DNA of 64,000 nucleotides, taken from the NCBI GenBank assembly GCA_963700155.1, contig OY969472.1, positions 176,271 through 240,270 of the forward strand, written 5' to 3'. The notes beneath the pieces are model-generated. The model was not told the origin of the DNA, searched no databases, and saw nothing but the letters and a program-made list of their open reading frames with translations. Source of the stretch: an uncultured bacterium (GTDB lineage Bacteria; Patescibacteriota; Dojkabacteria; J137). Shown here one piece after another: positions 5,429-42,478 of this stretch (position 1 is the stretch's first letter; each line of letters begins with the position of its first letter). A program made the position numbers and the translations under genes.

Positions 5429-7681
5429 TTAATATCTTGGTCTTCTATCATTAAATCTTCGTCTATCATTTCTTTGCTCAATTTGCATTTGACCTATTAC
5501 AGGATGTTCGAGAATTTCTTTTATTTTTGGACTTTGTTCTATTCCTTTGATCGTGAAATTAACTCTCCCATCTTCAACTTTCATAACTTGAACATTTAGT
5601 TCTTGTCCTTCTTTAAACATCTTTGATAAATCATATTGTCCCTGTTTTTCAAAAATCTCAGAAACATGAAGTAACCCAGAAATACTTGAGCTTACGTTTA
5701 CGAATACACCATAAGGCATAATCTTATCAATCTCACCGACATAAACTTTTCCTACTTCTGCTTCACCTAGCATTTCTTCTATTGTAGTTTTTATAAAATC
5801 TAATTGAGTTTTATTACCGGCAGTAATCATTACTCTTCCATCTTCATCAACATTAATATCAGCAGGAGTATTACTTTTGCTGTATTCTTGAGATCTCATT
5901 ACTAGTTCTTTAATATTCTTTCCACCTGGTCCGATAAGCTCGCCGATTTTATCCTGTTTAATTTGTACAAAATCTACAACTGGAGCATTTGGAGCAAGTT
6001 CTTTCCTCGGCTCGCTTATTGCTTTATTCATCACCTCTAAAACTGTTTCTCTTCCGGTTTTTGCTAATCTAAAAGCTTCTTTTAATACTGTTAATTTAAC
6101 TCCCCTTAATTTATTTTCAAACTGCATCGCAGTTATTCCATTTTTTGTCCCAGTTACTTTGAAGTCCATATCACCATAAAAGTCTTCGATTCCTTCAATA
6201 TCTAAAAGTAATTTATATTTATCTTCATTCCCATCTTCTGTAACAAGTCCAACTCCTATTCCAGCAACTTGTTCTTTCATTGGAACTCCTGCAGCCATTA
6301 AAGCCATACTTGATGCGCAAGTAGCTGCCATTGAAGTTGATCCATTTGAAGTTAAAATTTCTGAAACAACTCTTATTGTGTAAGGGAATTCATCCTGACT
6401 TGGAACCATATTTTTTAAAGCATTTTCTCCAATTGCACCATGTCCAATCTCTCTTCTCCCAGGCATATAGTTATATCTTCCAGCTTCACCTGTTGCCATT
6501 GGTGGCATGTTGTAATGATGCATAAATCTTTTACTTGCTTCTCCTTCCATGTTATCTGTCAAGAGTTCTTTACTTTGAGAACCAATTGTAACAATTGATA
6601 ATGATTGGGTTAAACCTCTATTGAATAATGCAGATCCATGTACAGTTGGTAGTAAGTCAATCTCTGCAGATAAAGGTCTTATCTCTGTAAGAGTTCTTTT
6701 AGTTACTCTTTTTTCATCTTTTAAGATAGCTTCTCTTACTATTTTTTTTGCGACATATTCTACTGCTAAATCAATTTCAAATTCAGAATATTTTTCAGTT
6801 TCTTCTGGTACATTTACAGTAATAAAGATTTCTTTTTTAATTGCATTCAGGTTTTGAGCCCTATCGGTATCTTTATCTTTTTCAACAAATAAACCTTTTT
6901 TTATTGAGTCTTTATAGTCTTTTTTAACTAAATCAATCAACTCTTGTGGAGCAGGTACATCACTAAATTCTTCTTTTATTTCATCTGGATTTAATACTTC
7001 TTTGCCAGCACCTTTAACAAATTCTCTTTGAATTTTATTTAACTTTTCAATTGCTCCATTAGCTTCATCTAAAAGTTGGTCCATTAAATCATCTGAGATT
7101 TCTTTACCCCAACCTTCTAAATTTAATAATCTTCCATCTAAACCTGATGCTGAAAATTCAGCATTATAATCTTCTCTTACTTCTACTTCAGGATTTAAAA
7201 CAATCTTATTGTCTTTATCAATGCAAGCAACAACACTCGAACTAGGTCCATAATAAGGAGCATTACTTAACATCAACGATAGACTGGCTCCAAAAACAGC
7301 TAATGTCTCTGGATCATTAACCTCATCATAACTTAATATTGTTAAGACGACTAATGTTGGTTTCCTGAAACTTTTAGGAAAAAGTGATCGAATCGAGTGA
7401 TCAACTTGTCTCGCTTTTATTATTGCGTCCTCAGATGGATGTCCTTCTCTCTTTGCAAATCTTGAGCCTGAGATTGCACCTCGAGCATACATCTTTTCAA
7501 TGTATTCAACTGATAATGGGAAAAAATCCTGTTCAGAATCTTTCTCATCAATTGTTGTTGTCGCTAAAACACTTGTTCCGCCAACTTGAAGTAATACCGA
7601 ACCTGCAGCCAATGTTGCTAACTTTCCTGTTGATAGCTTAATTTCTTTCCCTAGGAAATCATATGTTTTTGTATATTCCAT
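5429..7681 (-). CDS. pnp: Polynucleotide phosphorylase (PNPase)
   Basis: Two RNase PH-like domains, a KH domain (IGELIGPGGKNIKEL) and a C-terminal S1 domain (GKVYVGEIDKIMPYGVFVNV). The track ORF starts at 7753, but the conserved N-terminus MEYTKTYDFLGKEIKL begins at an ATG at 7679-7681, so the upstream 24 codons are probably not translated. Confidence 0.9.
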   Translation of the reverse strand: MEYTKTYDFLGKEIKLSTGKLATLAAGSVLLQVGGTSVLATTTIDEKDSEQDFFPLSVEYIEKMYARGAISGSRFAKREGHPSEDAIIKARQVDHSIRSLFPKSFRKPTLVVLTILSYDEVNDPETLAVFGASLSLMLSNAPYYGPSSSVVACIDKDNKIVLNPEVEVREDYNAEFSASGLDGRLLNLEGWGKEISDDLMDQLLDEANGAIEKLNKIQREFVKGAGKEVLNPDEIKEEFSDVPAPQELIDLVKKDYKDSIKKGLFVEKDKDTDRAQNLNAIKKEIFITVNVPEETEKYSEFEIDLAVEYVAKKIVREAILKDEKRVTKRTLTEIRPLSAEIDLLPTVHGSALFNRGLTQSLSIVTIGSQSKELLTDNMEGEASKRFMHHYNMPPMATGEAGRYNYMPGRREIGHGAIGENALKNMVPSQDEFPYTIRVVSEILTSNGSTSMAATCASSMALMAAGVPMKEQVAGIGVGLVTEDGNEDKYKLLLDIEGIEDFYGDMDFKVTGTKNGITAMQFENKLRGVKLTVLKEAFRLAKTGRETVLEVMNKAISEPRKELAPNAPVVDFVQIKQDKIGELIGPGGKNIKELVMRSQEYSKSNTPADINVDEDGRVMITAGNKTQLDFIKTTIEEMLGEAEVGKVYVGEIDKIMPYGVFVNVSSSISGLLHVSEIFEKQGQYDLSKMFKEGQELNVQVMKVEDGRVNFTIKGIEQSPKIKEILEHPVIGQMQIEQRNDRRRFNDRRPRY

Positions 7682-32428: not shown

Positions 32429-32446
32429 GCAGACGTGGCGGAATTG
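32429..32446 (+). repeat. 18-nt duplicate of the 5' end of tRNA-Leu(GAG) (GCAGACGTGGCGGAATTG), 124 nt upstream of the intact gene
   Basis: Exact match to tRNA positions 1-18. The sequence diverges after that. Confidence 0.8.
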
Positions 32447-32552: not shown

Positions 32553-32636
32553 GCAGACGTGGCGGAATTGGCATACGCGCTACCTTGAGGTGGTAGTCCA
32601 AGCAATTGGGTGCAGGTTCAAGTCCTGTCGTCTGCA
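32553..32636 (+). tRNA. tRNA-Leu (anticodon GAG), type II, 84 nt
   Basis: GCAGACGTGGCGGAATTGGCATACGCGCTACCTTGAGGTGGTAGTCCAAGCAATTGGGTGCAGGTTCAAGTCCTGTCGTCTGCA. Anticodon loop TTGAGGT, long variable arm, T-loop GGTTCAAGTCC. Confidence 0.85.
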
Positions 32637-32697
32637 TTAGCTTACCAAAAAGAAATTATATATAACTCAAGTATTTTAGATGTTCTAATTTACAAAT

Positions 32698-33408
32698 ATG
32701 AAACTTTACAGAGGATTTATTGTTGATCATAATAAACCACAAAACGATCCATTCCGACAGGAATCTTCAATTAACATTGCGGAGGCTATACGGGTGCCAG
32801 AAAAATTTGATCCTCATTCTTCAAATAACTCAAATCAACTATTGTGGGCAACTCCAGAAGAAAACTATGCAAAAGGGGTAAATCTAGCGAGATTTCTAAG
32901 CAGGTATATTTTTAGTTCAGCTTTTCGCGAGAGTGTGGGCCAAGGCAAAGTACAGCTAGCAATAGCAGAATATAATGTAGAAGAGGGTAATGTTTATCTC
33001 GTAAATGAAGATGGAGTTCACAAGTATTCCCCAGATGGAGAACAATATTTAATTCAGAAAAGTAATGACAGACCTCAGATACGTACCATTAGTCAGGATT
33101 CATTTACAGAAATAGTAGGATTATTAGGTCGGAAAGGTATGCAGGATTATATAGCGAGAGCGGCGTATAGATTATCTCAGCTATATAAATTAAGTATTAA
33201 CTGGAATAAAGAAAGAATAGTTAATGAGATGACTTTTTATGAAGGTGTAAATTATATACTCTCAAAATACTTTCCCCAAGTACTCTTACAAGAAGAGCTG
33301 TTAGAAGAATTTGCAGAAGGATTATTTGGAACCAGTCTTCGATTCAATAGAATTGCGGAAAATTCAAATTATTCAAACTTATTTGAAGGGGAAATAGATC
33401 TAAGATAA
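32698..33408 (+). CDS. Hypothetical protein (first gene of the repeat-punctuated segment)
   Basis: ORF only, no motif recognised. Confidence 0.45.
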   Translation: MKLYRGFIVDHNKPQNDPFRQESSINIAEAIRVPEKFDPHSSNNSNQLLWATPEENYAKGVNLARFLSRYIFSSAFRESVGQGKVQLAIAEYNVEEGNVYLVNEDGVHKYSPDGEQYLIQKSNDRPQIRTISQDSFTEIVGLLGRKGMQDYIARAAYRLSQLYKLSINWNKERIVNEMTFYEGVNYILSKYFPQVLLQEELLEEFAEGLFGTSLRFNRIAENSNYSNLFEGEIDLR

Positions 33409-33545
33409 ACTCTAATTCAATTTAAGAGAATTGAGATCAAACTGTATTAATTAGTTCATATCCTATTGTTTATTTATAAATACTTGCAGTTTAGCTTCTA
33501 GTGATATTTCTTTCTTTGTATTCAATAAGTTGCTATGGCTAGGAA

Positions 33546-33626
33546 ATTCAAGAGATTCTATAATAGTAGCGAATTCTTGGAGTTCTTCTATGATTTGGGT
33601 TCGCTTTCGATCCTCTAAGTTGCATT
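33546..33626 (+). repeat. Segment repeat copy 1, short subtype (...GATTCTATAATAGTAGCGAATTCTTGGAGTTCTTCTATGATTTGGGTTCGCTTTCGATCCTCTAAGTTGCATT)
   Basis: Near-identical to copies at 36231 and 39204 and to the 3' half of copies 2 and 3. Confidence 0.85.
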
Positions 33627-33684
33627 GAGTTGTTTTATAAATCTTTTATTGATAGAATCCAGGAATAAATTTTAACATCATATT

Positions 33685-33978
33685 ATGAGTGATCAACTCT
33701 TTGTTCAAAGACAAAGTATCTTTAACGCTAAGATTACAACAGCTGAAAGCTTGCTTGAAGCACTCCGAGTAGATAAGCCATACTTACAAGCAGAAACTGC
33801 TGAAGTTACAATAGTAAAGTACGAAGAGGTAGAAGGTATCGATTATTTTACTATCTCTGCTAGTTATTTCGTTTCGAATTCTCCAACTAGTAATCCATAT
33901 AAAAAAACTGAATTAATTACGATTACAGTAGATAAAGGAGAAATTAGTAATTTTGGTTCTAGAGTTATAGAAGGATAG
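33685..33978 (+). CDS. Hypothetical small protein
   Basis: ORF only. Confidence 0.4.
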   Translation: MSDQLFVQRQSIFNAKITTAESLLEALRVDKPYLQAETAEVTIVKYEEVEGIDYFTISASYFVSNSPTSNPYKKTELITITVDKGEISNFGSRVIEG

Positions 33979-34010
33979 GTGTTTAAATTTTACTCTTCAA
34001 AATTAATATA

Positions 34011-34108
34011 TTCCATAATGGTACTGAAAACTTTGAATTCTTCTAATATTACTCGAACTGAGCTACTACTCAGTTCACCGGTTCGCTTTCGATCCTCTAA
34101 GTTGCATT
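34011..34108 (+). repeat. Segment repeat copy 2, long subtype with a 27-nt insertion carrying the GAACTGAGCTACTACTCAGTTC hairpin
   Basis: Shares ...TTCTTCTAATATTACTCGAACTGAGCTACTACTCAGTTCACCGGTTCGCTTTCGATCCTCTAAGTTGCATT with copy 3. Confidence 0.85.
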
Positions 34109-34129
34109 ATTTTATTATAAACTCCTGAT

Positions 34130-34753
34130 TTAAGACTCTCTTCTTGACCTACTTAAAATGGTATCTATTGCCTGTACAAGATCAGCTCTATAGGTTTTAT
34201 AATTCCTAATAAAACTCTCCTCAGAACTAATTATTTGAGCAAATCTGTCAGCCAATGATTTATAATGGCCTGTCAAAGGTAGCATTAAAGAATATTCCAT
34301 ACTTAACAAAGTATTAACTGCATCTATATTAAAAAAGGTTTCAAATAAATCCCCAATCATTTCCAAAGTATATTCATTACCTATATCAGGATCTGCATCT
34401 GGAATACCAGCAAGCACTGGAAGTGAACCGCCATTTCCCATATATTCTAAAATCAAAGCCGTTGATTCCTTAAGTATACCGAGTATTTGCTTTCCTACAT
34501 CTGATAGACCTTCTAGTGCAGTTAACATACTTAAATCCCCTGATATATTTCGCCTTGCTAAATACCTTATTACATCAAATGGGATTTTAGGTGAAGCATT
34601 TAAAACATCCGCGATCTTGAATATTATTCCATTAATTTGAATAGTTTCTCCTAATTCTTCTCTTGAAAGTATTTTTGATCCTATCTCATCTGTTATTTTT
34701 GATACAAACAACGCTGGATTAGATTGAACTCTTTCTAGTGCATTTACATCCAT
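34130..34753 (-). CDS. Hypothetical protein
   Basis: ORF only. Confidence 0.45.
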   Translation of the reverse strand: MDVNALERVQSNPALFVSKITDEIGSKILSREELGETIQINGIIFKIADVLNASPKIPFDVIRYLARRNISGDLSMLTALEGLSDVGKQILGILKESTALILEYMGNGGSLPVLAGIPDADPDIGNEYTLEMIGDLFETFFNIDAVNTLLSMEYSLMLPLTGHYKSLADRFAQIISSEESFIRNYKTYRADLVQAIDTILSRSRRES

Positions 34754-34830
34754 ATATTAGTATTAAAATATAATTGTACGGAATATATAATTTTAATATA
34801 GAAAAAGCAAGTTGAATTTAAATAGCCTCA

Positions 34831-34939
34831 CATTCAATGGATTCTATAATAGTACTAAATTCTTGGAGTTCTTCTAATATTATTCGAACTGAGCTACTAC
34901 TCAATTCACCGGTTCTCTTTCGATCCTCTAAGTTGCATT
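34831..34939 (+). repeat. Segment repeat copy 3, long subtype
   Basis: CAATGGATTCTATAATAGTACTAAATTCTTGGAGTTCTTCTAATATTATTCGAACTGAGCTACTACTCAATTCACCGGTTCTCTTTCGATCCTCTAAGTTGCATTGA. Confidence 0.85.
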
Positions 34940-34946
34940 GACTTAT

Positions 34947-35591
34947 TCAATAAGGATTTTTCTTCTTGTCTTTTATATATTTTTCGTAATACTTCTTAGA
35001 GTCAAGAGCTTCTGGTCCAGTTCCATTCTCGAAATATTCTAAGAGTTGATCTTCAATATAATCATTCTCATCTGAATAAGAGACATTCCAATCATCTATT
35101 GTAATCAAAATACCTAACAAAACCTTATCTTTGAAGTTATAATCATAATACGTTGCTTTAGGGAACTTATGCATAATCTCAAACACAACCTCATGTAAAA
35201 AATTTTCAGAGATCTCATCATCAAAATAAAGCTTTAATACTTTTTTTATTAAAATTTTTACATCATCTTCAGTTGGTTTAGTTTTAGGAAAATTCTCATT
35301 TCGTATATATTCTCCAACTGTTGATTCGAGTTTATCTTCATCATTAGAGGCTAGTGTTTGATAAAAATCTAAAATCCTACCTCTTACCTCGATAAATTCT
35401 GTTGTTGGCTGTCTTACACTCCAATTCAAAGCTAATTCCACCAATGCTCTCAAGTTAGAATCAGATTTATCAATTTTTTGACAGAGAGATCTAGCATTTT
35501 CTGCGAGCTGCTTTCGAGATATTTGACCATCGAAATAACGCTTTATTGCATTTTCGAAAATTTTTCGAGTATTTGAATCATTAATTTTCAT
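34947..35591 (-). CDS. Hypothetical protein
   Basis: ORF only. Helical and Lys/Glu/Asp-rich. Confidence 0.45.
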   Translation of the reverse strand: MKINDSNTRKIFENAIKRYFDGQISRKQLAENARSLCQKIDKSDSNLRALVELALNWSVRQPTTEFIEVRGRILDFYQTLASNDEDKLESTVGEYIRNENFPKTKPTEDDVKILIKKVLKLYFDDEISENFLHEVVFEIMHKFPKATYYDYNFKDKVLLGILITIDDWNVSYSDENDYIEDQLLEYFENGTGPEALDSKKYYEKYIKDKKKNPY

Positions 35592-35786
35592 AGTTTACTA
35601 ATTATAATAATTAAAATTTTATATAGATTTTACCCCTTAAAAATATTTAAACCAACTTTGTCTTTTGGTAAAGCTCGTCACTGCTGACGAGAGAATTGTA
35701 GTCTGTTTCCAGATCTACACTTCTACAAAGTTGGTTTAACTTTTAGCTTCAGATCTACAAATCAACGATTTTGATACTGTTATGGA

Positions 35787-36035
35787 TCAGCCACCGAACC
35801 AGGAGCCGAAGCCACCTTTTTTTTCCTTCTTGCCCTTGCGGTCTTTGACAACACCCGTCTCGATGGTCAGTTTGCGCCCGTTGTCGTGATCGGTCTGGTG
35901 ATCCCCTGTCTTCGATCCATCAGGGTGGCGATCATGAGACCGGTGTAAACCGGGCTGGTGTTTTACCGTGTGAACATACGGTTTTCCATTCTTATCTTTC
36001 TTGTTCTCATTTTTCGTTGTATGTTTCCTAACCAC
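35787..36035 (-). CDS. GC-rich small His/Lys/Gly/Asp-rich hydrophilic protein (disordered, possibly stress- or metal-related)
   Basis: GTG start 5 nt after a strong AGGAGGTG SD. No hydrophobic core. About 50% GC against roughly 30% flanks. The 5'UTR has a GTGTCCGAAAAGGAACAC hairpin. Confidence 0.45.
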   Translation of the reverse strand: MVRKHTTKNENKKDKNGKPYVHTVKHQPGLHRSHDRHPDGSKTGDHQTDHDNGRKLTIETGVVKDRKGKKEKKGGFGSWFGG

Positions 36036-36230
36036 TTTACACCTCCTAAGGGTGTTCCTTTTCGGACACTTAATGTGTCATGAGTAATAATATTATCACT
36101 CAATCTATATATAATGTCAATATACTAGAGACGTTTGTAGAGCTCATCTACTAATATTTATCTAAAACTTTGATGAAATAAATCTTTATCTGCGGTAACT
36201 TCAACTGTTCGGATAGCTTCCGCATTGTCT

Positions 36231-36316
36231 TCAAACTCAATGGATTCTATAATAGTGCTGAACACTTGGAGCTCTTCGATGATTTGGGTTCGCTTTCGAT
36301 CCTCTAAGTTGCATTT
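36231..36316 (+). repeat. Segment repeat copy 4, short subtype
   Basis: CAATGGATTCTATAATAGTGCTGAACACTTGGAGCTCTTCGATGATTTGGGTTCGCTTTCGATCCTCTAAGTTGCATT. Confidence 0.85.
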
Positions 36317-36367
36317 GAATTTAGCTTTCACAACATTTATACTAAGGATAATAAAGTTAATTATCCT

Positions 36368-36976
36368 ATGAATAATATTGATTTACCCAATGCACTTCCA
36401 CAAGACATCATCGCAAAAGAAAAGCTTATAGAATTAGTTAGAGAAAAGTTAATACCAAAACTTGATTTATATAGAGATAGATTTTCTGACTTTCCAGAAC
36501 TACAGAAAAAGGTTTCAGACGAAACTATTGAAATCATGGTAGAAAGTTTTGCTGAATGTTTCTTACTACTTAATTTAACGCAGGAACATATTCCTGATTT
36601 TTTTGTATTTGATGAGAAGTTTAGAGAAGAAATAAGTATGATAACAAATACCGTATGGATTCTAAATAGTGAAGATGGACCTGTTTTTAATATAAACTAT
36701 GATCGTCTTTATGAAATATCACAAAGAATTTCAGAAAAAAATTCAAAATTAAATTTAATGGAAAAAGATCATTTACGACAAATGATTGCCCATGAAGTAC
36801 ACCATATTTATGATATATATTTTGATCCTGAAAGAGCAAAAATTTCAGGAATAGCAAATGCAAGAAGTGACTTAGCTTTCTTAGACCCAGGAGAAAATGC
36901 TGCTCAACAATTTGGTTTTAGATATCGTGATCTAAAAAAAGATGAAGATGACTTAAAAGTTAATAATAAAAACTGA
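36368..36976 (+). CDS. Hypothetical protein with an HExxH motif (possible zincin-like metallopeptidase)
   Basis: MIAHEVHHIYD contains HEVHH. No other support. Confidence 0.4.
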   Translation: MNNIDLPNALPQDIIAKEKLIELVREKLIPKLDLYRDRFSDFPELQKKVSDETIEIMVESFAECFLLLNLTQEHIPDFFVFDEKFREEISMITNTVWILNSEDGPVFNINYDRLYEISQRISEKNSKLNLMEKDHLRQMIAHEVHHIYDIYFDPERAKISGIANARSDLAFLDPGENAAQQFGFRYRDLKKDEDDLKVNNKN

Positions 36977-37142
36977 ACAAAATCGTTCTACCTCTACTTT
37001 CTATCATAATGACATCTAATCTAATCTTAATTTACCTCAATACTTACTTTTAACTTGGTTTTGGAAATTACAATATAGGAACTGTACTTGAACCATTAAT
37101 TATTTTCAGATGTTCAGAAAAGAAAAAATAAATTAAAATAGT

Positions 37143-37994
37143 ATGATGATTATTAAGACATACATTCCAAGCTCACCTTTAAATACATTTATAAAAGTTA
37201 TGTGGATTTCCGAAGGGGTAGCACAAACAAAAAGGATTAAGATTCTCCCCGACACATCACTTCATCTAATGATCAATTTAGGTGAGCCTTATAGAATATA
37301 CAAAACAGATACCGTGGAATGTATTACAACATGTAAAGAAAGTTGGTGCGTAGGAATATGGAAGAATTCCCACTTAATGGATTACCCCACTAAAATGCAT
37401 ATCTTAAATATTACGTTTTTACCTGGTGGAGCATTTCCATTTATTGGTTATCCAGCGATTGAGGTGGAAAACAATATTGTTCCACTAGAGGCAATTTGGG
37501 GATCTAAAGCTTTGGAGTTACGAGAGAAACTTTATTATGCACGTTCTGCAGATGAACGATTTAAAATTCTTGAAGTAAGTTTATTTCAAAGATTGAAAAA
37601 TACTGAAATATCAAAAGAACTTATTATGATCCAAGATGTTATTCGTCAAATTTCAGTTAATAATGGAGTTTTATCTATCTCTTCATTAAGTGAACTTTAC
37701 AATATTAGTCAAAAACACTTGATACATTTGTTCCTTAAGTTTGTGGGGGCTACTCCAAAAGAAGTTGCCAAGATATTTCGATTTAACTTTATACTTTCGC
37801 AAATAAATTCTAATTCCGACATAAACTGGACAAATATTTCTCAAGATTCCGGATACTATGATCAGTCTCATTTTAATAAGGACTTTAAATCATTCACTCA
37901 GATGACACCAAGTGAATATTTGAAGGAAACAATATTGGCAAATGGGAGGGTTCCGGAGTTGTCCTCTTCCCCAAATAATTTAGCAACTGGTTAA
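37143..37994 (+). CDS. AraC-family transcriptional regulator
   Basis: The C-terminal dual HTH (ISQKHLIHLFLKFVGATPKEVAKIFRFNFILSQI ... SGYYDQSHFNKDFKSFTQMTPSEYL) is diagnostic of AraC/XylS. Confidence 0.8.
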   Translation: MMIIKTYIPSSPLNTFIKVMWISEGVAQTKRIKILPDTSLHLMINLGEPYRIYKTDTVECITTCKESWCVGIWKNSHLMDYPTKMHILNITFLPGGAFPFIGYPAIEVENNIVPLEAIWGSKALELREKLYYARSADERFKILEVSLFQRLKNTEISKELIMIQDVIRQISVNNGVLSISSLSELYNISQKHLIHLFLKFVGATPKEVAKIFRFNFILSQINSNSDINWTNISQDSGYYDQSHFNKDFKSFTQMTPSEYLKETILANGRVPELSSSPNNLATG

Positions 37995-38022
37995 ATTTTT
38001 ACAAGCATTACCTCTATCATGG

Positions 38023-38517
38023 ATGTATTATTATAAAATATTAGGAGGTAATATGAAGAAATCAAATACATCTACAAATCAAGAAATTATAACAGTCAAG
38101 ACAATAAATGCATCCCCTGAACGCATTTGGAAAGCTTGGACAAATTCTGATGAAGTACGTACGTGGTGGGGTCCTGCTGGATTTTCAACTGAAACTCAAT
38201 TAATGGATGTGAAGCCGGGTGGAAACTGGGTATATATTATGCACGGACCAGACGGGAAAGACTATGCTAATGCTTTAGTTTATGATGAAGTTCAAGAACC
38301 AAATCGTTTAGTCTATACACATAAAGCAAGCCCTGAATTCAATTTAGACGGCTGGAAAATGATAAATACTTTTGAAGATATTGGAGGGAAAACAAAAGTA
38401 ACCATGCACGCTATTTATGCCTCTCCAGAGGAATACAATAAACATATCACTTTTTTTAATGCTGTTAAGGGAGCAAAAGAAATGCTTCAGCGGCTAGAAA
38501 AGTTTGTCAAGGAATAA
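38023..38517 (+). CDS. SRPBCC-superfamily protein, AHSA1/Aha1-like
   Basis: PERIWKAWTNSDEVRTWWGP and overall length are typical of the AHSA1 domain family. Confidence 0.65.
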   Translation: MYYYKILGGNMKKSNTSTNQEIITVKTINASPERIWKAWTNSDEVRTWWGPAGFSTETQLMDVKPGGNWVYIMHGPDGKDYANALVYDEVQEPNRLVYTHKASPEFNLDGWKMINTFEDIGGKTKVTMHAIYASPEEYNKHITFFNAVKGAKEMLQRLEKFVKE

Positions 38518-38543
38518 TTTAAGTTAATTTTTAAAAAGAAATT

Positions 38544-39149
38544 ATGAGAAAAATAATAGTCACAACAATGATAACAATCGATGGAGTGATGCAAGCTCCT
38601 GGAGGATCTAAAGAAGATACTGCTGAGGGCTTTTCATTTGGTGGGTGGACCGGACCTTACAACGACAAATTTACAGAAAAAATGTTTACAAGAGACATGT
38701 CAGGAAAATTTGATCTTTTGTTAGGGCGAAAAACCTATGAAATTTTCAAAGGATACTGGCCGGAGCATGCCTATGCTTGGCCTCGAATCAATGAAGTAAT
38801 GAAATATGTAGTGTCACGGAATTCTTCACTTAAAACAGATTGGAATAACTCTGTGCTTATTGGTATAGATATAGTCAAAGAAATAAAAAAACTTAAACGA
38901 GGTAACGGGCTTGATATTGAGATTTGGGGAAGCAGTAATCTAATCCAGACACTATTAAAAAATGATTTAGTAGATGAAATTTGGCTTAAAATATATCCTA
39001 TAACTTTAGGCACTGGGAAAAAGCTATTTTCTGAGGGGACAATCCCAGTTGCTTTCAAGCTAGAAGAGTGCAAAATTTCACCAAAAGGAGTCATTTTTGC
39101 TAATTATAAGAAAACCGGAAAAGTTAAAACAAGCGAGGTTAAAGACTAA
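38544..39149 (+). CDS. Dihydrofolate reductase-like (RibD C-terminal domain / YwjB family) protein
   Basis: MRKIIVTTMITIDGVMQAPGG ... YPITLGTGKKLF matches the DHFR-like RibD_C fold pattern. Confidence 0.65.
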   Translation: MRKIIVTTMITIDGVMQAPGGSKEDTAEGFSFGGWTGPYNDKFTEKMFTRDMSGKFDLLLGRKTYEIFKGYWPEHAYAWPRINEVMKYVVSRNSSLKTDWNNSVLIGIDIVKEIKKLKRGNGLDIEIWGSSNLIQTLLKNDLVDEIWLKIYPITLGTGKKLFSEGTIPVAFKLEECKISPKGVIFANYKKTGKVKTSEVKD

Positions 39150-39203
39150 GACGTGAGCATTAGTTATCGATAATCTTTTCACAGCTTAAGCATTAGAGTT
39201 TTT

Positions 39204-39243
39204 TCAATGATTTAGGTTCGCTTGCAGTCTTCTAAACTGCAAT
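39204..39243 (+). repeat. Segment repeat copy 5, degenerate 3' part of the short subtype
   Basis: TCAATGATTTAGGTTCGCTTGCAGTCTTCTAAACTGCAATG matches the consensus GATGATTTGGGTTCGCTTTCGATCCTCTAAGTTGCATTG. Confidence 0.6.
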
Positions 39244-39247
39244 GAAA

Positions 39248-39682
39248 TTACACATTAGTGATTTTTTCTCCTAATTCCTTTGCTCTCCATTGTAAATCTA
39301 TTAACACTCTAAACCTAGCATTCTTGGTTACATCAGTTTGTTTCAATAATTTTAATATCAACTCTGTTTCAAAATTCTTCATTCCTGTTGAATTTATAAG
39401 AAAATCAAGCATTACACAATTATTTGTACCAATGTCTTCCATCAATTGATTTGATACATTGCAAGTTGTAACTAAAAAAGTTCTCACTCCATTTAATTGA
39501 AAATACCCCTCATAAATCTTAATTAAATTATCTATACCTTCTTTAAGTATTAATACTGTAATATCCTGAGGATATTTTTCCAATAATTCTTTGATAGCAT
39601 TCTGACAAATAATTACATCACTAGTAGGTTCTTTATCCATAATATATAAATATGAGTTAATTTTCTGGATTATACATAACAA
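39248..39682 (-). CDS. Hypothetical protein (likely starts at the internal Met, MDKEPTSD, at 39640)
   Basis: ORF only. Confidence 0.4.
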   Translation of the reverse strand: MLCIIQKINSYLYIMDKEPTSDVIICQNAIKELLEKYPQDITVLILKEGIDNLIKIYEGYFQLNGVRTFLVTTCNVSNQLMEDIGTNNCVMLDFLINSTGMKNFETELILKLLKQTDVTKNARFRVLIDLQWRAKELGEKITNV

Positions 39683-39714
39683 TTCATGAATTTATCAAGT
39701 TGTGTTGGTTGTTA

Positions 39715-39756
39715 GGCGCGGCGTTAAATGCCGCGCCATCTCAACCTTGCTAATTA
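39715..39756. repeat. Cassette-1 3' element: GGCGCGGCG-TTAAA-TGCCGCGCC hairpin plus terminal IR AACCTTGCTAATTA
   Basis: Nearly identical elements at 40943-40980 and 41751-41782. The 14-bp IR partner TAATTAGCAAGGTT is at 40798-40811. Confidence 0.85.
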
Positions 39757-40635
39757 TCAATTAGTCCGACGCCTGATCATCTCCAGTACTTGTTGGGCTT
39801 GATATGTAGAACAGGATGGGGTAAGCCCCCATACATGAGTATTGTCGTCTGTCAGGTATATAGGTTCACGGGTAAGCCAGGCGTTCGAATATAAGCCATT
39901 TCGCACTACAATCATCCACTCTCCTTCTGTTGGAAGAAGTTGTTTCGACATTAGCCCATCGGTGTCAAAGAGTGGAGTCCAGTATCCGCCTGGACCATTC
40001 TTAATCTGACCTGCGACTTCACCATTGATCTTATAAATGACTTCTCCGAAGTCGCAGAACGGGACATCCTCACCAGGGCTTGGTGCCACATAGTCGGACG
40101 TCTTGTCGAAATCCACCCACACTGACGCTTCAGAGCCATCAATTCCGACCCGGACAGCGTTACCCTCGCAGGATTGCACTGTGGTGTCGTAACCAATGAC
40201 CGAGATCCCCGCTTCAAGCTGAAGCTGGGAGTCAAGATAAATCTCGACGCTCGGCGGAACGCGAATCGGATTATCGATAGCGCAATGCCTTACTGTCTCC
40301 TGCACTCCGCCAAGTTGATCAGTGTAGCTGGAGGTTTCATCGAAATCCGCCAAGTCTACCCACACACCAGCATCCACACTAGCTACTGATCTATCGTGGA
40401 AAATGACAAGAGCTGCATTTCCCTGGCATGCTCTAACTTCACCATCGAAGCCAGCGATCAAGGATCCAGCACTAACTTGAAGCTGAGAGTCAAGGTAAAG
40501 TGCAGTACCTGCTGGAACATGAATCGAGGGGAGTCCTGTGACACAGTAACGCTGATGAACATCCTGCCCAAGAGCAGGCTGAATCAGTCCGATAGTGAGC
40601 AATACGCCCACGAATATTACCACTAATTTCTTCAT
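39757..40635 (-). CDS. Secreted protein, paralogue 1 of a three-member family (two internal about 70-aa repeats plus a shared C-terminal domain). GC-rich.
   Basis: Signal peptide MKKLVVIFVGVLLTIGLIQPALGQ. Internal duplication YCVTGLPSIHVPAGTALYLDSQLQ... and HCAIDNPIRVPPSVEIYLDSQLQ.... C-terminus GEWMIVVRNG...HVWGLTPSC...VLEMI is shared with paralogues 2 and 3. Confidence 0.7.
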   Translation of the reverse strand: MKKLVVIFVGVLLTIGLIQPALGQDVHQRYCVTGLPSIHVPAGTALYLDSQLQVSAGSLIAGFDGEVRACQGNAALVIFHDRSVASVDAGVWVDLADFDETSSYTDQLGGVQETVRHCAIDNPIRVPPSVEIYLDSQLQLEAGISVIGYDTTVQSCEGNAVRVGIDGSEASVWVDFDKTSDYVAPSPGEDVPFCDFGEVIYKINGEVAGQIKNGPGGYWTPLFDTDGLMSKQLLPTEGEWMIVVRNGLYSNAWLTREPIYLTDDNTHVWGLTPSCSTYQAQQVLEMIRRRTN

Positions 40636-40724
40636 TTCCGGTCTCCAGTATATTATGATTTTGCAGCTACGCTTATAAAGGACGCTACTTACCCTCAGTC
40701 TTTAAAGTTCGAGCTCGTTCAGCT

Positions 40725-40782
40725 TTAAAGATGCGCAAACTAACCTCATTTTATTTTTAAAGTCAGTTTGCGCATCTTAAAG
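40725..40782. promoter_or_regulatory. Large palindromic operator-like element upstream of paralogue 1 (TTTAAAGATGCGCAAACTAAC ... GTCAGTTTGCGCATCTTAAAG)
   Basis: A roughly 21-bp inverted repeat around a 16-nt AT spacer. It is related to the elements upstream of paralogues 2 and 3. Confidence 0.55.
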
Positions 40783-40942
40783 TACAAACTCAAGCAATAA
40801 TTAGCAAGGTTGTTAATGAACTGTAAAACTAACAAATGATTAGAATTTACAAGGGGATTATATCATGGTGATATACTTATGTCACATTAAAGTATCATAG
40901 GTACTTATTTAGGAAGGAATTAAGGAAGTTAGATTAGGTTCA

Positions 40943-40980
40943 GGCGCGGCGTTAAACGCCGCGCCTTCTCAACCTTGCTA
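40943..40980. repeat. Cassette-2 3' element: GGCGCGGCGTTAAACGCCGCGCC hairpin plus AACCTTGCTA
   Basis: A perfect 9-bp GC stem with a 5-nt loop. The IR partner AGCAAGGTT is at 41554-41562. Confidence 0.85.
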
Positions 40981-40981
40981 G

Positions 40982-41389
40982 CTATCCTAGGAAAATCCCG
41001 ATGAGATGAAGTAACCAAACGAGAAACTCGAGCTGCGGTTTTACGCACCCAATTGAATAGGTCCAAACCCTTGAGCCAGGTTTGACACTATCATATGGGG
41101 TTGCTGATACTTCGGCAGTGCTGAACAGTATTCGATCATTATGCAATCTTGCTACGATTAACCACTGCCCCGAAGGATTTACAAATATTGCTCCTCCGTT
41201 ATCAGTACTTAGCGAATCGAAGTACCATCCATTACTCATTGGTACCTGACGAAGCCCTTTTATTAGAATGCACTCAGTCACTCCAAGTGACATCCCCGAG
41301 CTGGAGCTATCGGCGAGAGCTGGGATAATTTGCAGTCCCAGCAATCCAATGAGCAATATGCTCACTAAGAATAATGGAATTCTATTCAT
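40982..41389 (-). CDS. Secreted protein, paralogue 2 (135 aa), GC-rich
   Basis: Signal peptide MNRIPLFLVSILLIGLLGLQIIPALA. GQWLIVARLHND...RVWTYSIGC...LEFLV aligns with the shared C-terminal domain. Confidence 0.65.
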   Translation of the reverse strand: MNRIPLFLVSILLIGLLGLQIIPALADSSSSGMSLGVTECILIKGLRQVPMSNGWYFDSLSTDNGGAIFVNPSGQWLIVARLHNDRILFSTAEVSATPYDSVKPGSRVWTYSIGCVKPQLEFLVWLLHLIGIFLG

Positions 41390-41476
41390 TCTACCTCCAT
41401 TACAAGCTACTGCAGCTTCGCTAACTCAAGGATGCTGCTACCCTTATCATCAAGTACTGAGCTCATTCGGACTCGA

Positions 41477-41524
41477 TGACGCGCAAAGTAACTTAAAATT
41501 TAATTATCGTCACTTTGCGCGTCA
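41477..41524. promoter_or_regulatory. Palindromic operator-like element upstream of paralogue 2 (TGACGCGCAAAGTAAC-N16-GTCACTTTGCGCGTCA)
   Basis: A 16-bp IR with one mismatch. Near-identical copy at 42479-42526. Confidence 0.6.
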
Positions 41525-41553
41525 CCAATCTTAAAATTTTCAAGGATATTATC

Positions 41554-41650
41554 AGCAAGGTTATCAGTAATCTTTCATAGCTTTCGCATATGATTTTGAT
41601 TACTAACAACATTAATCCCATAAGTGGGATTGCTGTTATTAATGTGCTTA
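41554..41650. repeat. Conserved about 100-nt AT-rich structured block (AGCAAGGTTATCAGTAATCTTTCATAGCTTTCGCATATGATTTTGATTACTAACAACATTAATCCCATAAGTGGGATTGCTG...)
   Basis: Repeated at 42555-42660 with a few substitutions. Contains AGTAATC/GATTACT and AATCCCA/TGGGATT hairpins. Confidence 0.8.
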
Positions 41651-41750
41651 TAATACTATTATACACTAAGAGATTATTTTATATAATATAAGAAGTATAT
41701 AAGGATTTTAAAGATATCTATATTTATTTGAAAGTTATCAGGCGCGGCGT

Positions 41751-41782
41751 TAAACGCCGCGCCTACATCGATAACCTTGCTA
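41751..41782. repeat. Cassette-3 3' element: GGCGCGGCGTTAAACGCCGCGCC hairpin plus AACCTTGCTA (overlaps the stop codon)
   Basis: As for cassettes 1 and 2. The IR partner CATAGT..TAGCAAGGTTAT is at 42543-42566. Confidence 0.85.
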
Positions 41783-42406
41783 ACTATGCATAATCTCCAA
41801 GATGTGATCAAGATCCCCCTGATCACACCCATTGTTCAGCGCCCAGACGTGGGCGCCGAAAATCGAGCTGACGAACGTGTAATTGACAAACCGAGCGGTC
41901 TGCCAGAGATCGTTGCCTTCAGGTCCTTTGTCCACTACTAAGAGCAGTTGCCCGTAATAGTGGAGATCAGTCGAGGGATGAACAAAGACGATTCCTCCTT
42001 GATTAGTCTCACGACCGGCATGATAATCTCCGTCACCGATGGCGTCGCCGCCAAAAACCTTCTGAATACGGCAGATCGGGCGAGTAACTTGCGGTCCATC
42101 AGGCATAATTGAGCCTTCAAAGATGGAATTCCTTATATCATCAACCGCAACCCATAACCGATGATCGGAGCCGTGAATACTGATCTCTGCTGAATCGATG
42201 TCATCTGCGCAAGTATTCACAACAGCACCAAATCCTTCCGTTGTCAGACCATATTGTTCGGTCCGACCCGCGTCATTGAATAGCCAGGTGCCTGGCTGGA
42301 CAATTACGTAGCCATTCGTACATGCCACATTTTCTTGCCCGATGGCTGGCGTAACCAGCATGGCTGAAAGGACAATGAACACAATGAACAGAACTAGCTT
42401 CTTCAT
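41780..42406 (-). CDS. Secreted protein, paralogue 3 (208 aa), GC-rich
   Basis: Signal peptide MKKLVLFIVFIVLSAMLVTPAIGQ. The C-terminus GQLLLVVDKG...HVWALNNGC...ILEIM aligns with paralogues 1 and 2. Confidence 0.7.
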   Translation of the reverse strand: MKKLVLFIVFIVLSAMLVTPAIGQENVACTNGYVIVQPGTWLFNDAGRTEQYGLTTEGFGAVVNTCADDIDSAEISIHGSDHRLWVAVDDIRNSIFEGSIMPDGPQVTRPICRIQKVFGGDAIGDGDYHAGRETNQGGIVFVHPSTDLHYYGQLLLVVDKGPEGNDLWQTARFVNYTFVSSIFGAHVWALNNGCDQGDLDHILEIMHS

Positions 42407-42478
42407 TTTCTTATCTCCGTTTTGAACTCTTTCTCTCGAAGTATGCTTATCATCTTCCCGAATGATTCCTGGGTTTAA

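Follow-up and report, generated by a model that had tools for sequence, protein, structure and literature searches.

What are the five direct repeats that punctuate a run of small genes behind the tRNA-Leu(GAG) gene of an uncultured Dojkabacteria bacterium? The repeats occupy positions 33544-39243 of a 64 kb stretch of contig OY969472.1 (the window), and a first reading of its letters without database searches, hereafter the sequence-only reading, had likened them to a cassette array or to attachment (att)-like sites left by serial insertion. They form an ordered array whose link to a tRNA-Leu gene recurs in a second genome, whose counterpart is absent from the corresponding loci of relatives, whose cargo is unrelated from unit to unit and around which no recombinase was detected in the window. 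The hypothesis that we favour, with a probability of about one half, is that the repeats are att-type sites bounding integrase-less cassettes that were added serially at tRNA-Leu by a recombinase encoded elsewhere.

Repeat search and MAFFT alignment give the five copies that had been described, all direct, in one orientation on the plus strand, 85-112 bases long and spread over 5.7 kb. They are named c1 (33544-33626; nhmmer E=1.2e-23), c2 (33997-34108), c3 (34828-34939), c4 (36233-36315) and c5 (about 39200-39243; E=1.9e-16), the last being degenerate and forming the distal end of the array. A profile built from six copies, these five and one from a second genome (contig L003, see below), finds exactly these five in 64 kb, with E from 1e-16 to 1e-25. 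The remaining ~58 kb of the window holds no further copy, the next-best profile match having E=1.8, in agreement with the initial statement that nothing similar occurs there. The 29-nt core GGTTCGCTTTCGATCCTCTAAGTTGCATT has four occurrences at no more than one mismatch (33598-33626 in c1, 34080-34108 in c2, 34911-34939 in c3, which carries the mismatch, and 36287-36315 in c4) against 0 expected from 100 shuffles. Copy c5 is 78% identical over 46 nt and ends in the core variant GGTTCGCTTGCAGTCTTCTAAACTGCA/AT, which forms a 7-bp hairpin of its own (here and below the slash marks the sharp end of an element or the end of a tRNA gene).

The division into two subtypes also holds. Copies c1, c4 and c5 are short, and c2 and c3 are long by a net insertion of 27 nt, which holds an 8-bp hairpin, GAACTGAG with CTCAGTTC, present nowhere else. 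The hairpin is perfect in c2 (34055-34076) and has one change in c3 (34886-34907). This change is a C-A mismatch on the plus strand and a G-U pair in minus-strand RNA, a hint that the hairpin, if it matters, acts in a minus-strand transcript.

Three features did not figure in the sequence-only reading: the contrast between a sharp and a fading end, a stop-free frame on the opposite strand, and sharp ends that abut stop codons. The alignment shows that on the side away from the tRNA the likeness among copies stops abruptly after ...CTCTAAGTTGCA(TT), read as ...GTTGCA/TT in c1, whereas on the tRNA side it fades gradually. The 27 nt beside the sharp end, whose searchable form is TGCAACTTAGAGGATCGAAAGCGAAC, are nearly invariant, with one substitution among c1-c4; outside this core 24 of 78 columns are variable. 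Minus-strand stop codons lie 6 nt (c5), 9 nt (c3) and 23 nt (c2) from the sharp end, and downstream plus-strand genes start 51-57 nt from it (c1, c4). The placement of the copies in intergenic gaps is correct for four of them; c4 alone overlaps a 57-codon minus-strand open reading frame (ORF) at 36158-36331, which is probably not a gene.

The tRNA-Leu(GAG) gene, which is the proposed primary attachment site, lies as stated upstream of the repeats, at 32553-32636 on the plus strand (ARAGORN; Rfam tRNA model, 53 bits). The array begins right after position 32636, at the 3' end of this gene (...GTCTGCA/TT). Its right flank is a convergent 130-aa gene on the minus strand (39248-39640; a public gene call confirms the ATG at 39640 as the start), whose stop codon is 6 nt away from the end of the array. 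From the tRNA onward, the spacing of repeats and genes divides the region into five units in which cargo precedes a repeat. The ORF map agrees with the earlier description of one to four genes, in either orientation, between consecutive copies. Unit U1 (0.99 kb; cargo 32637-33543) carries a plus-strand ORF of 236 aa (32698-33408) with no confident family, and U2 (0.48 kb; cargo 33627-33996) a plus-strand ORF of 97 aa (33685-33978), which is called as a gene in the Logan contig L002. The next two units have their cargo on the minus strand: a 207-aa ORF (34130-34753) with its stop 23 nt from the sharp end of c2 in U3 (0.83 kb; cargo 34109-34827), and a 214-aa ORF (34947-35591) with its stop 9 nt from the sharp end of c3 in U4 (1.38 kb; cargo 34940-36232). 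Further parts of U4, on the same strand, are a strongly structured, RNA-like stretch (35600-35760) and an 82-aa ORF (35787-36035) in GC-rich DNA. U5 (2.93 kb; cargo 36316-39199) holds four genes, all on the plus strand, coding for a 202-aa HExxH protein (36368-36976), an AraC-family regulator (37143-37994), an SRPBCC/AHSA1 protein (38023-38517) and a RibD_C reductase-like protein (38544-39149).

Comparison of the 207-aa and 214-aa cargo proteins and the flanking 144-aa ORF found these three to be mutually unrelated, and the cargo outside U5 matched no Pfam, PADLOC or PHROG family. The GC content of the units is 0.31-0.35, against 0.30 for the genome, with the exception of the 0.43 segment in U4. 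Pfam matched no integrase, resolvase or transposase in the scanned window ORFs of at least 120 aa, in line with the initial remark that no integrase is nearby; seven large housekeeping-type ORFs were scanned by NCBIfam only, without a match, and three short ORFs nested in a 2192-aa ORF were excluded.

The gene content of the window fits a Candidate Phyla Radiation (CPR) bacterium, with a PrgI-like protein, RadC, the 2192-aa ORF and 30% GC. The next relatives of its histidine kinase are only 55-56% identical, and several of them are labelled Candidatus Dojkabacteria. In a distant relative (L014, GCA_041750555.1) the order tRNA-Asp, HAD hydrolase, tRNA-Leu(GAG) is conserved, its HAD protein being 34% identical to that of the window over the full length (E=4e-30). 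There 8 nt separate the 3' end of tRNA-Leu(GAG) from a convergent gene's stop codon, and the locus has neither repeat nor array. Removal of 6.6 kb from the window, from the tRNA up to the convergent 130-aa gene, would give this layout.

Search of a metagenome collection with a degenerate core pattern gave one match, in a groundwater Dojkabacteria population. This second locus, seen in eight assemblies (L003-L008, L015 and L016), reads ATP synthase, SecG, a peptide-binding protein (SBP), 2 nt, element, a 287-aa gene on the opposite strand, tRNA-Leu(CAG) and LemA. Taken from the tRNA, the order is tRNA, cargo, and an element whose sharp end points away, which is the arrangement of the window. 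The core of the L003 copy is 26/27 identical to that of the window and the remainder is ~65% alike. This element ends 2 nt from the SBP stop codon, and the 21.8 kb of L003 contain no copy beyond this single tRNA-linked one. Three relatives (L009-L011) read SBP, 44-46 nt, LemA, with SBP 63-66% identical and with no element, cargo gene or tRNA in the gap; no repeat copies are found in L009-L014. The segment of 1.28 kb (L003 11831-13107) that is missing from L009 (11840-11885) and L010 (3507-3550) has tRNA-Leu(CAG) inside it. This tRNA gene was either moved or lost in the relatives, or it travelled with the cargo and the element. In another sample (ERZ27254749) the megahit contig L015 ends 66 nt into the element that follows the SBP gene (6636-6701). 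This contig end could be a branching of the assembly graph, with more than one element context in that community.

At both loci the junction bases after GCA agree with the local 3' flank of the tRNA. The window has ...CTGCA/TT at the tRNA and ...TTGCA/TT at the elements, and L003 has ...CAGCA/CTT at the tRNA and ...TTGCA/CTT at the element. A conservative crossover at the tRNA end predicts this agreement, in a match that is too short to prove it.

Wider searches returned little. The core pattern has 0 matches in 185,579 species-representative genomes, among which the HAD neighbour has 0 relatives, and 0 matches in viral contigs. Among the viral contigs the 207-aa cargo protein found nothing better than a weak 33% match and the 214-aa and 287-aa proteins found no match at all, and blastn against phage and plasmid collections gave no match. 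No strain polymorphism, same-species empty site or circle is seen among the other contigs with the cargo genes (L002, L012 and L018). Contig L002 ends within 30-mers common to c1 and c4.

Of the cassette and att interpretation put forward earlier, what stands is the array at the tRNA-Leu 3' end, its absence from a relative's conserved locus, a homologous element bounding a one-gene insertion at tRNA-Leu(CAG) and the lack of dispersed copies in the window and in L003; an attC-like or terminator-like fold of the repeat, which was to be checked, is not supported.

In the serial-insertion hypothesis that we favour, each cassette would be 0.5-2.9 kb long, would carry from one to four genes, none of them for a recombinase, and would consist of cargo, an arm of ~60-90 nt and the nearly invariant 27-nt core. 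The repeats would belong to the element and would not be copies of the target. A recombinase encoded elsewhere (in the genome, a phage or a plasmid), whose existence and type we infer, would join a circular cassette through its core to the tRNA-Leu 3' end (...TGCA/TT), where the crossover would fall, or alternatively to the core of a cassette already resident. Such recombination at the tRNA or at a resident core would create the junctions and build a head-to-tail stack, in one orientation, behind the tRNA. The product would be tRNA-O-[cargo-arm-O]n-old flank, the last core abutting the former downstream neighbour of the tRNA, and the cassettes may still be mobile at present. The model explains why all copies share one orientation, why their sharp end is turned from the tRNA, why the core is invariant and why the cargo is unrelated, as well as the last core abutting the neighbour's stop, the two independent tRNA-Leu loci and the absence from relatives.

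Several observations weigh against this hypothesis. No recombinase for the cassettes was identified among the window ORFs scanned, and the core displays no clear pair of inverted binding sites around a spacer. Nor is the repeat a recognisable copy of the tRNA 3' end, in contrast to the direct repeats of classical tRNA islands. It is identical to the 3' end of the adjoining tRNA-Leu gene over 5-6 nt only (TGCATT in the window, GCACTT in L003). In the natural register its last 22 nt match the tRNA 3' end at 12/22 positions (p=0.005; 14/22 for c5), or at 9/19 (p=0.055) without the terminal GCA. Under gapped local alignment to the tRNA end the repeat reaches p=0.06-0.08, and it is not recognised by the Rfam tRNA model. 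Mimicry of the tRNA by the repeat is thus possible but unproven, and, the similarity being borderline, we did not adopt a reading of the repeat as a tRNA 3' fragment. On the comparative side, the link to tRNA-Leu rests on two loci only, and the "empty" loci come from distant relatives only. Since tRNA-Leu(CAG) is also absent in the relatives, all three parts of the second locus, element, cargo and tRNA, could have been gained or lost as one. As regards mobility, the three other contigs with the cargo genes all come from the same run (ERR11571143) and have the same gene arrangement, L002 being 100% identical. Finally, the minus strand of the repeat has a frame that is stop-free for 38-53 codons in c1-c4, which a pure DNA site would not predict; the subtype indel of 27 nt amounts to nine codons, a multiple of three, and the pN/pS ratio (nonsynonymous to synonymous variation) of the open frame is 0.30, or 0.36 on shared columns, the lowest of the six frames.

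The nearest rival to the serial-insertion hypothesis, which we consider unlikely, is that the units are decayed stumps of larger integrative elements, such as prophages or elements akin to ICEs (integrative and conjugative elements) or IMEs (integrative and mobilizable elements), that entered tRNA-Leu serially and lost their integrases and most of their genes by deletion, the sites being relics. The same facts fit it: the tRNA-Leu location, the direct repeats and the absence from relatives. Accretion followed by decay to integrase-less, att-flanked elements is documented in streptococcal islands (PMC5704250), and tandem islands at ssrA are reported for Dehalococcoides (PMC3146451). Copy c5, in addition, is clearly decayed. 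Yet the five units are tiny (0.5-2.9 kb), each ends precisely with the repeat and the next starts at once, and none contains fragments of integrase, phage or conjugation genes; so clean a trimming of every element would be rare under independent random deletions. The almost identical cores of c1-c4 argue against long neutral decay, and the repeat is element-borne and not a recognisable tRNA 3' copy. Should the units be such stumps after all, the finding would be ordinary genome archaeology.

The open frame on the minus strand raises another explanation, a slightly less likely one in our view: the repeat would be the N-terminal coding part of a family of small-protein genes or pseudogenes, duplicated with adjacent DNA, and the sharp end would be the coding start. 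The frame runs from the first base of homology and reads CNLEDRKRT[Q or GELSSSSVR(V/I)]I(I/L)EEL(Q/K)(E/V)F(A/S)TI(I/M)E..., also written with IIEELQEFSTIIESIEF. Its openness over the length given above, in DNA of 30% GC, the length difference of whole codons and the low pN/pS speak for coding, as does the c4 ORF, which has an in-frame GTG start and is called as a gene in a public assembly. The signal of selection, however, is modest by permutation (p=0.03) and marginal when conditioned on open frames (p=0.06), and the variable columns number 10, 4 and 10 at the three codon positions. The GTG start exists in c4 only and lies within non-homologous sequence, the homology ending inside this ORF, 6 codons past its start. 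In c1-c3 an in-frame stop lies 0-7 codons upstream of the conserved Cys codon and there is no in-frame start; in c5 and the L003 copy a stop interrupts the frame after 9 and 12 codons. The copies share no conserved Shine-Dalgarno sequence. Codon-usage log-odds of these ORFs are 0.8-2.6, under the 5th percentile of the window genes (2.0 at 26 codons; 10.0 at 52). A word-indexed search of 5.8 billion proteins found no homologue of the small ORF, and full HMMER against 1.84 billion representatives gave one spurious match only. The core, moreover, is more conserved as DNA than the rest of the "protein".

A side observation touches this frame. All six copies have an ATG, GTG or TTG codon one base upstream of it, opening a short frame MQLRGSKAN..., and this start codon is followed by CAA CTT AGA G (e.g. 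33616-33626 on the minus strand; L003 11831-11845). CUU-AGA-G resembles the yeast Ty1 +1 frameshift site CUU-AGG-C. A +1 slip there could in principle feed the open frame from the start codon, a point for a small-gene family that is speculation drawn from the letters. To us, the arm of the site seems either to come from a small coding sequence or to overlap with one, and the best-conserved part seems to be conserved as DNA.

An improbable alternative to serial site-specific insertion is that the repeat is one end of a non-autonomous transposable element, inserted repeatedly; candidates are a MITE-like (miniature inverted-repeat transposable element) unit, an IS200/IS605-type HUH element of which this would be the right end, or a Tn7-like element that homes downstream of tRNA genes. 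Right ends of IS200/IS605 elements carry a subterminal hairpin, and some transposons home beside tRNA genes. The sharp end of the repeat opens with 5'-TG on the minus strand, and a weak imperfect hairpin of 6 bp, GGTTCG-CTTT-CGATCC, similar to such subterminal hairpins, is found 11 nt from it in c1, c2, c4 and the L003 copy. The hairpin is broken in c3 and c5, however, and no unit start has a hairpin that could be the matching left end. The terminal 17-mer has no inverted counterpart in the 64 kb even when 3 mismatches are allowed, so that terminal inverted repeats are lacking. No target-site duplications are evident at the flanks of the units, the window yielded neither TnpA nor another transposase, and dispersal of the element is not seen.

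Quite improbable is a cis-acting RNA or regulatory element (terminator, 3' untranslated region stabiliser, TATAAT promoter or small RNA) spread by local duplication. In its favour, four of six cases start 2-23 nt past the stop codon of a same-strand gene, and c1, c3 and c4 each have a cargo gene starting downstream of one face of a TATAAT box. The box is perfect and lies in a 9-nt palindrome CTAT-A-ATAG (33560-33572, 34018-34030, 34847-34859 and 36249-36261); in c2 the palindrome is CCAT-A-ATGG, two compensating changes that preserve the symmetry. It is absent from c5 and the L003 copy, and c1 and c4 do not follow a same-strand gene. Promoter-like sites are no commoner than in shuffles and the -35 region is not conserved. 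As to RNA structure, the short type folds like shuffled sequence, and so does the long copy c3 (c1, c3 and c4 as DNA or RNA, z from -0.8 to +0.8), and no structure is common to all six copies, the only strong stem being the hairpin of the c2/c3 insert. No hairpin is followed by a U-tract, and Rfam at E up to 5 recognises only the tRNA and no RNA family for the repeat. A regulatory element would also leave the tRNA-Leu linkage and the insertion polymorphism unexplained.

Finally, a cluster of attC sites lacking integron-integrases (CALIN) is very improbable: the succession gene, repeat, gene, repeat, a repeat length of 85-112 nt within the attC range and the GTT of the sharp end (GTTGCAT, one position off the consensus GTTRRRY) recall one, but c1, c3 and c4 as single-stranded DNA have z of about 0 where attC folds into a hairpin, the fading end has no inverse core RYYYAAC, the cargo is of mixed orientation with one unit of four genes, the window contains no intI or other tyrosine recombinase, and the anchor is a tRNA gene and not attI.

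Other sequence classes were tried and rejected. Folding of the six copies as single-strand DNA and RNA disposes of an attC-like or terminator-like structure, none being shared. A dif-like symmetry fails by inspection, the putative arms GGTTCGCTTTC and CTAAGTTGCAT being complementary at 3/11 positions and the copies all direct. A portable promoter is rejected on the promoter counts given above, paralogous larger units on the unrelated cargo proteins, and defence or phage cargo on the empty results of PADLOC and PHROGs. With 0 copies in the other 58 kb of the window and 1 in the 21.8 kb of L003, the repeat is not a dispersed one of the repetitive extragenic palindromic (REP), bacterial interspersed mosaic element (BIME) or enterobacterial repetitive intergenic consensus (ERIC) kind. 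Repeats of diversity-generating retroelements were set aside, the window having no reverse transcriptase and the copies not lying at 3' ends of long ORFs; so were pilin-like silent cassettes or orphan toxin modules, the variable tails having only 3-27 codons, and domain V of group II introns, for which Rfam gave no match.

Three observations concern the surroundings of the repeats. The segment 35600-35760 of U4, on the minus strand just upstream of the 214-aa gene, has a very stable multi-branch RNA fold (minimum free energy -48.3 kcal/mol, z=-5.4, 0/200 shuffles as good), in which a 13-bp closing stem, AAACCAACUUUGU with ACAAAGUUGGUUU, surrounds three hairpins. Its only Rfam match is a sub-threshold one to the aspC motif (25.5 bits, E=2.1), and the segment could encode a cis-regulatory or small RNA not yet described. 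On the 5' side of tRNA-Leu(GAG), 124 nt upstream of the gene, the plus strand carries an 18-nt copy of the tRNA 5' end, GCAGACGTGGCGGAATTG (32429-32446). This may be the scar of an older rearrangement or insertion, and it may or may not belong to the cassette system. Just past the array, a block of 45% GC (39701-42450) in this 30% GC genome contains three minus-strand genes for secreted proteins of 292, 135 and 208 aa, with closely similar signal peptides in two of them. A 45-nt repeat with a GC-rich hairpin, GGCGCGGCGTTAAATGCCGCGCC, follows two of these genes (39714-39758 and 40942-40986). The block has the look of foreign DNA acquired on a separate occasion.

CPR bacteria have tiny genomes; to our knowledge, few mobile elements are recognised in them and their gene gain is poorly understood. 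A repeat-defined stack of cassettes at tRNA-Leu would be a concrete and searchable route of gene gain in this group. The 27-nt core common to two Dojkabacteria populations is usable as a probe for cassettes, for their cargo and, via co-occurrence, for the recombinase in metagenomes. If the sites are active, they would be a recombination site distinct both from att sites that copy a tRNA and from hairpin attC sites. Going further, we tentatively consider a bolder idea, which is doubtful at present: a new integron-like platform of gene capture in Dojkabacteria, and perhaps in other CPR bacteria. In such a platform the tRNA-Leu 3' end would act as attI, mini-cassettes of 0.5-3 kb would bear promoters, the site would be unstructured and of ~85 nt with a 27-nt core, and a recombinase encoded elsewhere would insert, stack and exchange the cassettes. 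The ORF across the site could itself belong to the platform, for instance as a small factor expressed only from one junction configuration.

How does the array compare with known systems? Tandem accretion at tRNA genes or other conserved genes is described for the ICESt1-related islands of Streptococcus thermophilus and for tandems of IMEs and cis-mobilizable elements (CIMEs) at tRNA-Lys (PMC5704250). Like the array in the window, CIME tandems are head-to-tail units at a tRNA 3' end, with direct repeats in the same orientation and without integration genes of their own, and are absent in relatives. They differ in that their repeats copy the 3' end of the target and their units are decayed ICEs or IMEs of several kb, whereas the window has an element-borne repeat of 85-112 nt that shares ~5-6 nt with the tRNA, units of 0.5-2.9 kb without relics of integration or transfer genes, and a CPR host. 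Tandem ssrA-specific genomic islands of Dehalococcoides (PMC3146451) are a further parallel. They reportedly share with the window repeated insertion at the 3' end of a small RNA gene, a tandem bounded by direct repeats and the small genome of an uncultivated-type bacterium. The repeats of those islands are reportedly ~20-bp copies of the ssrA end and the islands are said to carry a serine integrase, neither of which holds for the window.

Small modules devoid of a recombinase are also known from integrative mobile elements exploiting Xer (IMEX) and from the pdif modules of Acinetobacter plasmids, which resemble the window in their conserved sites, of ~28 nt, and in a mobility that depends on a host recombinase. 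In their dif-like sites a 6-bp spacer separates two inverted 11-bp arms, and the orientation of pdif sites alternates, whereas the core of the window has a 3/11 arm match and direct copies. Integron attC sites are imperfect palindromes (R''-L''/L'-R') that fold to a hairpin with extrahelical bases. Integron cassettes and CALINs are like the window in their compact, mostly one-gene cassettes with unrelated cargo, in an element-borne repeat of ~60-140 nt in one orientation and in the lack of an internal recombinase. They are unlike it in the attC hairpin and R''/L''-L'/R' symmetry and in attI and intI, none of which the window has; its own particulars are the tRNA anchor, the mixed orientation of cargo and the unit of four genes. 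The array lacks the hairpin attC, attI and intI that define integrons, and its repeats are not recognisable copies of the tRNA end, as those of tRNA islands usually are. By analogy, what it appears to resemble most is tandem accretion at a tRNA gene combined with compact cassettes of integron-like form.

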